Below are positions 42,101-48,100 of a DNA stretch of 64,000 nt, piece after piece. Numbering within the stretch: position 1 is the stretch's first letter; each line of letters begins with the position of its first letter. This stretch comes from Podarcis gaigeae (taxonomy: Eukaryota), in the NCBI GenBank assembly GCA_964106915.2, contig OZ066924.1; one strand, given 5' to 3'. A program made the translations under genes and the position numbers. The notes under the pieces are model-generated. The model was not told where the DNA came from, ran no database searches, and worked only from the letters and a program-made list of their open reading frames with translations.

Positions 42101-45100
42101 GAGCTAAGTGATAGCTTGACAGCATATTGTCTGAACCTGACCTCATAGTTTGTCTTGCTCCAGACAAACCATGAGCAGCTACCAAAATTTGTCCTGGGGC
42201 TTACCGCTTGTGGTTTGTCTGCAGGGAACAACCAAAGGAAAAGTTTCACTACCCTTAGCAAAAACACAAGTTGAAAGGAACAGAGTTAAGGGAAAACACT
42301 CAATTATAGATGGTATAAATACAGATAATATTCCGTAAGAGAAAATGAACAGTTCAAAGGAATGTAAGGAAAGCACTTCTTTATCCGGTATAGGCCACTG
42401 CCAATGAAAACATAACTAAATTCAATTGAATTAAAACTAAAAATGTACACTAATTGTATTCAACTACAGTAATTGAATTAAAACTAAAATGTAATGGTCA
42501 GATATGGTTCAATATTTAGTCTTCTTCAGTGGCCTGCTACTATCCTTATTCTCCTATTATTTACCTGGAACATGCAATCACTTTCAAAGATCAGTTAATT
42601 TCAGTTCAGACATCCACTTTGAATCAGACAAACCACAGACCCAGGGACACAGCAGTGGAAGGAGGATCAGAGGAGGAGCACAGCAGCCACAATCTCCTCT
42701 CCAGGAACCTTCGTTCTCATGTCTTTGCACTAAGCAATAGTTTGGCTTAGCATTGCAGGTAAACCAACCCAGAGTGCATATCGTAAAATTTCAAGTTGCT
42801 TTCATGCAGATTTGCTATCCACAATCTAGTTAGTTGAACAGTTACACTTTTAAAAAAAAAATCAAGTTCAACATGTTGTGCAATTACTTAAATTATAAAT
42901 TAAAGGCATTTTAAAAAGATGCCTTTGCCGTCACTGATTTCAAATGATCAAGAGAAGCAATATAAAATTCATACCTGGAGACTTTGCAAGAGAAGCATGG
43001 AATACAGAGAAATTAATTAAGGCATAGGAAGCCAAGAAGAAATTGGAAATAATGGGAGCGATTACATTCAGTTCAGCTGTAAAAAAAAAAGAAAGAAAAG
43101 AAATGGAGAATTATATTAAATTTTACAATAAATAGCTGTGATAAGAACAGAATTGCTGCTTGGAGTGTGGGCTCTCTGCAGTCCCTCTCCAAGATTATGC
43201 GATGACTTAAACGATGGAAATTCATTTCCAGAAAATATGGCAATGGCCGCTATTGGGAGGGATTAGAAAATATTCATTTAAGATAAGGCTACTAATGGCT
43301 ACTATTAATGATGCCTATATATTACTTGCAGAATCAGAGGCACCTATGCCTCTGATCACCAGTTGCTGGGGAAGAACAGCAGGACAGGGCTAACTGCCTT
43401 CATGCTTTACTTGTAGCCTTTCATAGCAGCTTGTTGGCCACTCTAGGAAACAATGGTGGACAATAGGGATAATTCAGCAGGGCTCCTATGTTCTTAGTTT
43501 CCCCAAACAGAAGCCACCAACATTAGTGGTTTGGGGTACATTCCCTCTCCATGAAACAGGCTATGTATCCTCTATTCATACTGAACCAGATAATTATTAC
43601 ATGGGATTAGACAACAGAGACTGTATTAGATGCTCCAGATAAACTTATACCACAGAGAAATATCCCTCTTTTTAAAATGGTGTAATAACCAACCAATTAA
43701 TATGAATCCAAGAGCAATCAAGAAGGTCAGCAGATATCCTCGTAAAGGCTCGTTATTCTTCCCATAGCCTTTAGCAAACATCAGGAAACCCGGATAAATA
43801 TTGTCTTTACACAAAGCCTAGAAGAAGAAGAAAAAGAAGATGATGTTAATTAAACTATGGTCACATAGATATAAATCGATGCATCAAATCTGAATAATGC
43901 AATGGCATGTGAAGAATGTAATTACCAAAAACTGTAGTAACTGCAGACATCACTAACTCAGTGAGGTCTTGGGTACCATGGGAAAAGTTAGATGGTGAAC
44001 AGCGGAAGTCAGCTTTACTACAATTTAGTTACCTTTATGCAAGCCTAAATCAAATTGGTTTCAATATGGAAACTGAGTGCCTACACATCTTAAGATCCGA
44101 AAAACAGTCAGCGATTTGGGGGAAATAACTGAAAAAGTGTGTTAATAGAATACATTTGAAAGCCTTGATTTCTTAGTTTAGCTATGGGACCAATCCAACA
44201 GTATATTGAGAAACAGTGAATAAACATCACGTCCTTAGGATTTAGAAAAGTAATGTTTGAAAATATATCCAAAATTCAAGTTTGATCAGGCTTGCCACAA
44301 ACAACTCAAGATTCTTACCTGGAAGATTTTAGGTGCGCTGACGAGAGATGCTAATGCTGAAGAAAGGGTGGCGGAAAATATACCAGCTGATATCAGAGGT
44401 GCAAATCCTGATACCATGCTCATTACCTGGAATAAGAATGTAACTTTAACAAGGGCAGTTTAAAAAAAAAACCAAAAACCAAAAACAAGGCCAGTTCAAA
44501 CACTTTAACACATTTGTTGCAACGTTGTGTTAATATGAAACAGCATGCACAATTTTCAAACGCTATGACAACTATTAGAGCATTCAGAGAAAGAAAGACT
44601 CTCCTCCCTGAAAGAGAGGGGAGTGGTTGTGGGCGGGAGCCCGAGCACCGCCCAGCAGGGGGGCATTTGCCCCCTGCCTCCAGCTCACCTGGCTGGTGCT
44701 CACGCCCCCTCCTGTGGCCATCCAACCAGGTGCCACAGAGGGGGCGTGTTCAGCAGCCTTTTGCTGCAGCACTAGCCTCTCCCTGGCCTCATTCCTCATC
44801 GTCGTCCCGTGGCGAGTCATCTCATCAGGATCTCCTCTTCCACGTGCCCAGCTGAGCGACCACGTGGAGCCTGTACTTTGAAGAGGACTTTTTTAAAAGG
44901 GAGTTTTCGCCATGTGGTTGCTGTTGTCCAAGCTAACCCCCCTTGCCTGTACCTTGCATTTCCCTAATGCTTCCCCCTCATTCTTCCTTATTTTCTCATT
45001 TAGATTTCCAAAGCCTATTCTCATTGTTTCCGTCTGCTGAGCTTATTTAGTTCCGGAAATTCTACGTTACCCTTTAAGACTTTACTTCTAGTGTTCTCTG

Positions 45101-48100
45101 CCTCCCGACTATACTGCCTAAAGTCCTCCTTTTCTTTTGGGTTTCGGCTCGGGTGGCAGTTAGGCATTGGAATAATGTGTTGTGGTGTGTCGAAGTGCTA
45201 GGTGTGGCCATCGCCTATGCCTTCAATGTTTAGGGGTATTCCGTTAAAGGAATCTGGCGGTCGTGTATTCTGTCCGATGCCTGCTTGGCGGGAGGCCATG
45301 GCACGACCCTCGGTGACAGCAGGAGGTGAGCCTATAGTTGGATCAGCATCAACTGGCTCCACCTACCGGTGAATAAACCCACTTGTTTCGATCCAATGCC
45401 TAAGCCAATACCTTTTCATTGCTGTAATCAATAAAGTTGTGGCCTTTTCTAGCCCATTAACCTTATATCACGTGTCCTTGTGTCTTCATTTCACTTCGCG
45501 GGGTCGGGTCCTCGAACCACAAAGACTCTCCTCCCTGAAAGAGAGGGGAGTGGTTGTGGGCGGGAGCCCGAGCACCGCCCAGCAGGGGGGCATTTGCCCC
45601 CTGCCTCCAGCTCACCTGGCTGGTGCTCACGCCCCCTTCCTGTGGCCATCCAACCAGGTGCCACAGAGGGGGCGTGTTCAGCAGCCTTTTGCTGCAGCAC
45701 TAGCCTCTCCCTGGCCTCATTCCTCATCGTCGTCCCGTGGCGAGTCACCCACCCTCCACTCCCTTTTAGTTAGGGCCTAGGTCATTGGCCTTGCTATGGA
45801 CCTTAGGTTGGTCGCCCTGGTTGTCCGGGGGGCCTGGTAGGAGTTTTTCCATTTGGCATTAGGCTTTTTGGTTTTTTCGCCTACCTCGTAGCAATCGTCA
45901 CAACTTTTTGTGGTATTGGTGGGTAGGTTAGGCATTGGAATAATGTGTTGTGGTGTGTCGAAGTGCTAGGTGTGGCCATCGCCTATGCCTTCAATGTTTA
46001 GGGGTATTCCGTTAAAGGAATCTGGCGGTTGTGTATTCTGTCCGATGCCTGCTTGGCGGGAGGCCATGGCACGACCCTCGGTGACAGCAGGAGGTGAGCC
46101 TATAGTTGGATCAGCATCAACTGGCTCCACCTACTGGTGAATAAACCCACTGTTTCGATCCAATGCCTAAGCCAATACCTTTTCATTGCTGTAATCAATA
46201 AAGTTGTGGCCTTTTCTAGCCCATTAACCTTATATCACGTGTCCTTGTGTCTTCATTTCACTTCGCGGGGTCGGGTCCTCGAACCACAACTAATATTGCT
46301 TTACGAATAGTTAAGTGTCTGAATTTCCTCATTTCTTGTTCCTTTCTCATCTTTTATTGTTCTATATTCTAATCCTTAAGGCAGGGACCATGTTGCTTTT
46401 AAATCTTTGGACAGCAACCAGAAACCATAGATGCTTTAAAATAAAAGCAAGCAACAATGATTTGAATGATTTGGCTTTGAAGAATAAATCTCTTCTGCCA
46501 ATGAGTTATTTGGGGGGAAATATGATCAATAATCAGAGCAACTGCATAACTTCCTCCCTTTCAAAGAAGTTTCTGCACAAGCCTCACATTAAAGGGGTGG
46601 GTGGAACTGCATAGCAGCCATGCTTTGTAGGTTATGTACATTACTCTGAACTGGAGTGCTTTTACAGAACTATCATGCTGCAAGTTTGGGGGTTATTTTC
46701 CAACGAAACTCTGTATTTTCAAGATACTGATAATACCAGTACTGCTGTTCTGCACACAACTGACAACTTTGAAGAAAGCCAACTTCTGTTTTAAAAATAC
46801 TGAAAATCTGATTGGCACGTTCCAGCTATGCAGCTAACCCAGATTTGTGACTTTTAAACAAATACCAGTTTTTAAATAAAGTCTGGCAGGACTACTCCTG
46901 AATAAATTGCCTCTTTCTTTGCAGTATCTTTCTGTCAAAGCACCCACTAATGTTTTAGAGTAGTCACTGATAACTGCTTCAGCTGCTTTTGATTTAAAGT
47001 GACATAATCTCAGAAGGTAAACTCGTTACCTAATTCAGCCAAGTAAGTAGATGAAAGCCCTTTAAGGCCTAAGTACTTTATCTTAACTGAGCTATTATAC
47101 TTAAGTATATGAAAGACTATCATGGCTATGACTTTCACTGATCTTAGGAGAAGTCAAATTCAGACTATCTAGAACAGAGGTGAAGTAGTCAATATGACCA
47201 GATGCAATCTGACAACAAAGTAAATTAAAGGGAATTTAAAAGAGTGATTATCTCTCCTACTTTTGCCTTTGTCAAACTTATTTTTGCAATTTTTAATATG
47301 TTTCAAAAGCCTGCATCTCTGGTCTCTGTTTGACCAGAAATGACAGTGGGAACATGTGCTTACACTAAGTGTTTACACTAAGCATTCTAAAATATTCCAA
47401 AAGCCTGTTGTCCAGCCACAATGGTTCTAAATATACAAAATAGTTTGCACTTTGAAAAAAGAAGGAGGAATCCTAGAGTTGTAGAGCAAGGATCATCTAG
47501 TCCAACCCCAGCAATGGAGGAATCTCAACCCACTCCATTTTGAAACCATACTAGACCCTACTTAGCAGTTTTATCTAGAGATTATGAACTTTACACATGT
47601 GAAATTCATATTCTTGTAGACAGATTGCAACTTCAGACTTCTATTTAGAGGGGGGAAATGCGCTATTTCAAACTTTTGACCACTAGTCACACATTCTCTT
47701 TCTCATATGCACATAAACACAAAGTGGAGTGAGGGAGAATCACTATTTTTAATCTATTTCATGTGCTCTGCAAATGATTTAGTTTGCACACCTTGAACTA
47801 ATTCACAGACTGGAATGTAATTATCTTGATATTGCACTTCTCCAGTTGTTGTGATGCCGTTATCAGCTCAAAATGCATGAAAATACCTATTTTAAGATTA
47901 AATGTACTCCAATAAAATATGTACTTAAATACCAATCTTTATACAGGTGCTTTGGAAAAACCCTCACAGTTTAATGTGAACAGGATGGAAAAGGGTATTA
48001 TGAACATGGTTGGCACCAACTAGAAATAAAACTGATACATCCCTCCCTAATTTACAGTATATTAAGATTTATCTACATGTATTTTGTAAGTCATGCACAA

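Follow-up and report, generated by a model that had tools for sequence, protein, structure and literature searches.

A split-direct-repeat element in an intron of SLC12A2

A 64,000-nucleotide stretch of the Podarcis gaigeae genome (contig OZ066924.1 of assembly GCA_964106915.2; hereafter the window, within which all positions are numbered) carries, at 44594-46289, an element of ~1.7 kb inserted into an intron of SLC12A2 (NKCC1) and built from two pairs of near-identical direct repeats, A and B, and two unique spacers, S1 and S2. The order is A1, 339 bp of unique sequence, B1, A2, 179 bp of unique sequence, and B2. This order, the exact abutment of B1 and A2, and the identity within each pair are the strong features of the element, the parts of which are as follows.

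44594..44819, plus strand: A1, left terminal repeat, 226 bp, 65% GC, with strong predicted structure; GC-box-like motifs and, close to the 3' end, a single initiator-like match mark a putative promoter
44820..45158, plus strand: S1, unique non-coding internal region, 339 bp, in the place where an autonomous element has its gag, reverse transcriptase (RT)/RNase H and tyrosine recombinase (YR) open reading frames (ORFs)
45159..45522, plus strand: B1, internal copy of the right repeat, 364 bp, with two AATAAA hexamers (45372, 45430)
45498..45578, plus strand: predicted junction hairpin spanning B1 and A2, 32 pairs in 81 nt (RNA and DNA folding)
45521..45747, plus strand: A2, internal copy of the left repeat, 227 bp, adjoining B1 with a 2-nt AA overlap
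45748..45926, plus strand: S2, unique spacer between A2 and B2, 179 bp, predicted to form a closed folded domain that brings its two ends together
45927..46289, plus strand: B2, right terminal repeat, 363 bp, with AATAAA at 46140 and 46197 and a U/GU-rich stretch after the second; putative poly(A) site

Recomputed alignments reproduced the repeat order, the sizes and the pair differences given in the original prediction for this locus. A1 and A2 were 99.6% identical, a single 1-nt indel being their sole difference, and B1 and B2 were 99.2% identical, differing by two C/T transitions and one 1-nt indel (self-BLAST E-values of 5e-112 and 0.0, respectively). At both transitions, B1 had CpG where B2 had TpG; as CpG accounts for 50 of the 589 repeat positions, the chance that both substitutions would hit CpG was ~0.007, which argues that the repeat copies are real and are decaying by methylation. 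Both indels adjoined short base runs. The spacers differed, as had been predicted: S1 and S2 were unrelated, with a best local alignment of 18-19 columns. No tandem repeats were found inside the element.

With two CpG changes and no other substitution, the insertion was dated to 0.3-1.0 million years ago (95% range, 0.04-3.5), under a rate of 1-3e-9 per site per year and an assumed tenfold CpG factor. Scaling to the lacertid rates in PMC6381762 (1e-9 to 1.77e-8 per generation, with a generation of ~3.5 years) widened the point age to ~0.2-3 million years, and some of the repeat differences may predate insertion. The youth that had been claimed for the element fits the >99% identity of its repeats.

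The host gene

The Zootoca SLC12A2 protein gave 26 exon matches on the minus strand of the window, from residue 221 on, and the intron that holds the element (44427-48162) separates the 9th match from the 10th. The two exons that border this intron are:

44319..44426, minus strand: SLC12A2 exon downstream of the element (protein-to-DNA match; low end approximate)
48163..48312, minus strand: SLC12A2 exon upstream of the element (protein-to-DNA match; high end approximate)

The upstream exon was 96% identical to SLC12A2 of Zootoca vivipara and 94% to that of Podarcis and Lacerta, and at most 86% identical to all other matches (among the best 120 of 188), which marks the host as a lacertid lizard. 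A Pfam amino-acid-permease model was matched by 5 of the 6 exon frames tested. The predicted location in an NKCC1 intron is thus confirmed by the exon matches; its number, 10, depends on residues 1-220 lying in one exon outside the window, as we take them to do from the human gene. The element is a single intronic insertion, antisense to SLC12A2, and its A1 end lies ~167 bp from the nearest acceptor, so any effect on NKCC1 is probably small.

Composition, coding capacity, and ends

The element was 53% GC versus 36-37% in the 2-kb flanks, with GC and CpG content rising sharply at its ends. Its observed/expected CpG ratio was 0.53, compared with 0.29 for the window, and the two tiles that cover the element ranked 3rd and 4th of 74. 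AATAAA occurred four times on the plus strand, all within B (two per copy), and not at all on the minus strand; GC-box motifs were confined to A, and one initiator-like match was located at 44789, ~30 nt before the end of A1. S1 was pyrimidine-rich (purine fraction, 0.35). A segment of S2 (45889-45907) was complementary (19 nt, 79%) to 45433-45451 and 46200-46218, which overlap the second poly(A) hexamer of B and run on behind it; such pairing could mask the poly(A) signal or be due to chance.

No Pfam domain was matched at E 0.1 by any of 39 element frames (all 28 of at least 40 amino acids that overlap the element plus 11 shorter ones), a search that short gag or hydrolase remnants might escape. 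Among these frames, no ORF for gag, RT/RNase H, YR, or SGNH hydrolase was recognized, which bears out the predicted lack of gag, RT, and YR and places the element outside the definition of an autonomous Ngaro; nor was a PAT-type methyltransferase ORF.

A1 begins, and B2 ends, with the same AA dinucleotide in which B1 and A2 overlap (45521-45522). Even with the ends shifted by up to 6 bases, the flanks showed no direct repeat of 3-12 bp, in line with the predicted integration without a classical target-site duplication (TSD). The empty site would presumably join the two flanks at AA.

A predicted hairpin across the B1/A2 junction

Folded as RNA, A was more stable than each of 200 shuffles (z -5.45), as was S2 (z -3.46; 0/200); B was not structured on its own (z -0.06) and S1 was unstructured (z -0.44). 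Over 142 equal-sized tiles across the window the median fold z was -0.06, and the five tiles at z <= -5 all lay over palindromic repeats. A long hairpin within each A copy (44691-44758 and 45618-45686; DNA fold z -5.8) was the main source of the structure of A.

In the hairpin predicted at the internal junction, nt 34-58 of A pair with the terminal 25 nt of B, the stem is capped by A's own first hairpin, and the AA core is paired within the stem beside a 2x2 internal loop. As RNA, this structure had a z of -4.25, with 1 of 500 shuffles as stable; the corresponding counts were 2/500 when only the B tail was shuffled and 1/500 when the plus strand was folded as DNA. When the B tail was swapped for natural GC-matched 33-mers (from a pool of 2398), 6 of 1500 folded as well, and of 284 33-mers taken from within the element, none did. 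Eight sampled pairs had probabilities of 0.89-1.0 in a 661-nt context, and all eight were kept in the whole-element fold. At the left end, where flank stands in place of B, the fold was much weaker (-33.3 versus -51.3), and in A alone the A bases of the hairpin formed another local hairpin. In these models the end of B and the start of A fit each other structurally, which would be unexpected from random duplication. As a lead, the junction hairpin may be a new feature; its simplest role would be that of a signal in cis, used either to restore the ends or to recognize the junction.

A probable non-autonomous tyrosine recombinase retrotransposon

The layout A1-internal-B1-A2-B2, in which the pairs are near-identical and a TSD is lacking, is what the literature uses to diagnose split-direct-repeat YR retrotransposons (PMC8969392; PMC9210276; PMC6681497), the layout also being described in PMC13465315; the original prediction had recognized this plan, which is that of Ngaro, PAT, and VIPER. 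In curated Ngaro and PAT families the TSD is given as 0 (PMC12477816). The sizes of the repeats also fall within the known range of split-repeat elements, such as VIPER (A 173, B 219) and TATE (A 381, B 294) (PMC6681497). Descent of some kind from a split-repeat YR retrotransposon is therefore, in our view, very probable. The fuller account, which we hold with somewhat better than even confidence, is that of a young non-autonomous split-direct-repeat YR retrotransposon, most likely a Ngaro-derived miniature, that was mobile in its short form and inserted antisense in a lacertid SLC12A2 intron.

The split-repeat YR part of the predicted Ngaro/PAT label stands; the choice between Ngaro and PAT as parent rests on ORFs that are absent here. 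Ngaro is defined by RT/RNase H of its own clade and by having no methyltransferase, PAT-like elements by RT/RNase H close to that of DIRS and by a methyltransferase domain. Vertebrate YR retroelements are described as DIRS-like and Ngaro-like only (PMC9341512; PMC9210276), so Ngaro is favored, an assignment that rests solely on the vertebrate host. Since the defining ORFs are absent, we do not file the element as a Ngaro member, though it would work like one.

In the mechanism that we propose, RNA polymerase II would start inside A1 and stop at the poly(A) signal of B2, having read through the same signal in B1, so that the RNA would lack the outermost sequence at both ends. An autonomous relative would supply Gag, RT/RNase H, and YR in trans. 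RT would then restore the missing ends, with A2 and B1 as templates, and join B to A in a new junction identical to the internal one; the details of this restoration are reportedly due to Goodwin and Poulter. At its AA core, the restored B/A junction would be recombined by YR with a chromosomal AA, yielding A1-S1-B1A2-S2-B2 and no duplication. On this model the hairpin would be made up of just those terminal sequences of which the RNA has a single copy, and both single A-S-B units and permuted integrants are predicted. As outlined in PMC6681497, the model has repeats anneal to one another and implies that the pairs are near-identical when the element inserts. The circular intermediate, which the original prediction had called established, belongs to the model only: the replication and integration model of split-direct-repeat YR retrotransposons rests on sequence layout, and the one experimental study that we found concerns inverted-repeat DIRS-1, in which the cDNA was mostly linear and single-stranded, the circle junction could not be amplified, and the predicted circle was not captured (PMC7192593).

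Several points weigh against this account. The evidence comes from one copy, and self-BLAST found no second copy in the window, just two short matches of 20-32 nt (E 0.35). AA is indeed present at each of the three junctions, as had been claimed, yet a core of at least two bases shared with the flanks at the abutting junction has a chance probability of ~0.17, so it adds little by itself. The promoter and poly(A) assignments are motif matches only, and the leeway of the Pfam search noted above counts here as well. Ngaro was stated to be absent from lizards and Xenopus (PMC4746887); the Xenopus absence was later overturned in PMC9210276, which lists reptiles among the hosts when the DIRS-like and the Ngaro-like group are taken together. 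As for the hairpin, 19 of 500 shuffles were as stable when the minus strand was folded as DNA, a weaker result than for the plus strand, and 13 of 1000 were as stable in a duplex-only test; the initial 82-nt DNA folds of the junction gave z-scores of only -1.7 and -1.8. One 33-mer from S2 (45802) approached the B tail in the stability of its fold with A (-50.7 versus -51.3), and a B tail shifted by one base also came within 0.6 kcal of the real one. Because the hairpin was noticed after the fact, in a single copy and without covariation, we treat it as a lead of p ~0.005 and not as a proven structure.

Searches for relatives returned nothing that we accept, which belongs on the same side of the balance, although searches via reading frames and exact ORF look-ups are weak tests for non-coding DNA. 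In word-indexed protein searches, none of 18 candidates was significant for a minus-strand A frame, nor was the 1 candidate for a plus-strand frame of A/S1. A frame across B/A2, compared by phmmer with 1.84 billion representatives, had 2 matches, both to tandem-repeat proteins at 29-39% identity, which we attribute to score inflation. Exact look-up of 10 of the 19 ATG-started ORFs found none (0/10). Rfam had no match at gathering score across the whole window, and 4 sub-threshold matches around the element (E 0.4-2.3) were rejected; no tRNA was found. The element had no match among phage and plasmid records. A GTDB scan with a 20-base word from B hit 4 bacterial loci in which only those 20 bases matched, as expected by chance, and a word from the poly(A) region had no match in full texts of the literature. 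No lacertid split-repeat element, miniature of this size, or hairpin at a Ngaro junction turned up in the full-text literature searched, a body that lies apart from Repbase, Dfam, most supplements, and subscription reviews; an automatic repeat library may well list the family already.

Within the retrotransposon account, a more speculative idea, to which we give little credence, is that the B/A junction acts as a folded single-strand recombination site, such that the recombinase could integrate folded single-stranded cDNA without a double-stranded circle. Integron attC sites and the attP of CTX phage are folded single-strand recombination sites. The hairpin would form just where B meets A, at the internal and the restored end junction, and would place the AA core in a duplex of ~30 bp, so that single-strand integration would be possible. 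This would fit the cDNA of DIRS-1, which is mostly single-stranded (PMC7192593). If the idea were true, the 1.7-kb element would come close to the minimal cis unit of an amniote Ngaro family that is mobile at present, and, its two halves being nearly equal, permuted integrants (A-S2-B-A-S1-B) could reveal which junction was used.

Alternative explanations

The main rival, which we regard as possible but unlikely, is that one full-length Ngaro-like element entered this site and subsequently lost a coding core of ~5 kb by deletion (or is missing it in the assembly), leaving a dead relic. Layout and ends would be the same as for a miniature that moved in its short form, the lack of another copy in 64 kb would be explained, and degenerate Ngaro copies are described as common in Xenopus (PMC9210276). 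However, repeats that are >99% alike leave little time for such a deletion, and both breakpoints must have fallen outside all ORFs, given that 0 of 39 frames has a domain.

Less probable still is a head-to-tail pair of sibling non-autonomous units, A-S1-B plus A-S2-B, whether SIRE-like YR half-elements, one at the end of the other, or Helentron-type rolling-circle units at minus-strand TT. The sequence does parse as two A..B units, of 929 and 769 bp, each of which on the minus strand has TT at both ends and a hairpin close to the 3' end, and TT is the target of Helentrons. SIRE, moreover, is described as the A2-B2 part of VIPER (PMC6681497), and DIRS-1 is reported to insert into earlier copies (PMC7192593). 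Yet independent subfamilies with unrelated middles should not share ends that are 99.2-99.6% alike, the polarity of poly(A) and promoter motifs indicates a retroelement, and a single A-S-B unit would be without an internal template to restore its ends. Helitrons have 5' TC and 3' CTRR ends with a hairpin, and Helentrons have subterminal inverted repeats at TT. By such end criteria (given in part in PMC8969392), a Helitron or Helentron identity was rejected: the ends differ from 5' TC and 3' CTRR, clear subterminal inverted repeats were lacking among the longest 25 of 78 inverted repeats, and the sole likeness lies in the minus-strand TT and a weak terminal hairpin that is not unusual (z -0.6).

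A long terminal repeat (LTR) or Penelope product appears very improbable, whether as an LTR circle that integrated aberrantly, B+A being its LTR, or as pseudo-LTRs of Penelope in tandem. B+A taken as one unit does have a poly(A) signal and ends in CA. LTR elements are marked by TG..CA ends, a 4-6 bp TSD, a primer-binding site, and a polypurine tract, and their LTRs run in the order U3-R-U5; here there was no TG start and no 4-6 bp TSD, inspection by eye revealed neither a primer-binding site behind A nor a polypurine tract ahead of B, and in B+A the poly(A) signal precedes the GC boxes, opposite to the order U3-R-U5. An LTR retrotransposon, endogenous retrovirus, or terminal-repeat retrotransposon in miniature was rejected on these grounds. 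Penelope-like elements carry a hammerhead ribozyme; the two interleaved repeat pairs with different spacers and the absence of an Rfam hammerhead match led us to reject this identity as well. A hammerhead-like heptamer at 44828 (minus strand) was also set aside, as its partner, the second core motif, is absent. A DIRS-like identity was rejected because the ends are direct copies of the internal junction and no terminal inverted repeat was found (among the longest 25 of 78).

Equally improbable is an origin without any mobile element, whether from local duplications by template switching or from an assembly artefact: both indels do stand beside short base runs, as is typical of sequencing error, but the substitutions are CpG transitions, GC and CpG step sharply at the ends, phage and plasmid records gave no match, and the two spacers, the exact B1/A2 abutment, and the junction hairpin would all have to be accidents.

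Other features of the window

A fibrillin-like gene that is convergent with SLC12A2 has its last coding exon at 11785-12150 (plus strand); the exon had only a weak cadherin-domain match, and we take the gene by synteny to be FBN2. A GC-rich array of palindromic 110-bp units occupies ~1 kb at 5880-6960 (fold z -15 to -32) and is probably, at a guess, derived from a non-autonomous DNA transposon or rolling-circle element. A palindromic family of ~145 bp that resembles miniature inverted-repeat transposable elements is present at 27778-27925, 52254-52401, and 53140-53285 (86-88% alike) and, more weakly, at 56981-57113. Two copies resembling short interspersed elements (SINEs), 73% alike, are located at 23615-23986 and 38527-38874; they seem to us similar to the squamate Sauria/Squam1 SINE. 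Fragments of long interspersed elements were recognized by eye at 16893-17413, 19043-19221, and about 55800-56690, presumably L2-like reverse-transcriptase tails and CR1-like pieces. The window also contains an exact 50-bp local duplication (30211-30260 and 30271-30320) and an imperfect 100-bp palindrome (14583-14684).

Comparison with known systems

Non-autonomous split-repeat elements are already in print, namely, TOC1, Ngaro-N1_Ec32, and PAT-N1_Ec32, with SIRE as a reduced VIPER. TOC1 of Chlamydomonas, at ~5.7 kb and with internal tandem repeats, has a short unique spacer between A2 and B2; it differs from the present element in being PAT-like and algal. It is described as an active nonautonomous retrotransposon of the DIRS order (bioRxiv 10.1101/2022.06.16.496473) and, like the Podarcis element, is flanked by split direct repeats (PMC3266345). 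Ngaro-N1_Ec32 and PAT-N1_Ec32 of Ectocarpus share the A-int-BAB layout, a TSD of 0, and non-autonomy; they are brown-algal, measure 7756 and 9475 bp, and have internal tandem repeats, whereas our element is about one-fifth their size and has none (PMC12477816). For Ngaro-N1_Ec32, the same source gives 321 annotated copies and a B repeat ~90% like that of a Ngaro-3 family. As far as the publications consulted give sizes, then, non-autonomous split-repeat elements measure 7.8-9.5 kb, versus 1.7 kb here. SIRE of Trypanosoma cruzi is likewise a short non-coding derivative of a split-repeat YR element, VIPER, but it consists of A2-spacer-B2 only, with its own mobility left open in the account given (PMC6681497), whereas the Podarcis element keeps four repeats and the internal junction.

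Among vertebrates, Ngaro-like elements (Xenopus DIRS-53_XT and zebrafish Ngaro1) offer the A1-internal-B1-A2-B2 layout with identical pairs (PMC9210276). Compared by description only, DIRS-53_XT has an A of 236 and a B of 152 bp, versus 226 and 364 bp here; Ngaro-like elements have gag, RT/RNase H, YR and, in amphibian members, SGNH hydrolase, none of which was recognized in the 1.7-kb element (PMC9210276). DIRS-like elements (DIRS-1; AcDIRS1 and AcDIRS2 of Anolis) are akin in belonging to the YR order, in the absence of a TSD, in a short junction core, and in an internal copy of both ends, but they have terminal repeats that are inverted, plus an internal complementary region, where our element has ends that are direct copies. 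Anolis is credited with 775 DIRS-like sequences in 42 families (PMC3266345), and general background is found in PMC3783388, PMC9977147, and PMC4350176.

The element would be a record of recent activity of split-repeat YR elements in a lacertid lizard, an activity undescribed in the literature that we found, and it could serve as a presence/absence marker. A gene-less element of 1.7 kb that keeps all four repeats would delimit the cis sequences needed, and its junction hairpin may hint at how split-repeat retrotransposons, a poorly understood group, move. Set beside these systems, the element is probably a small new representative of a kind of retrotransposon that is already known, and it offers one mechanistic lead that can be tested.

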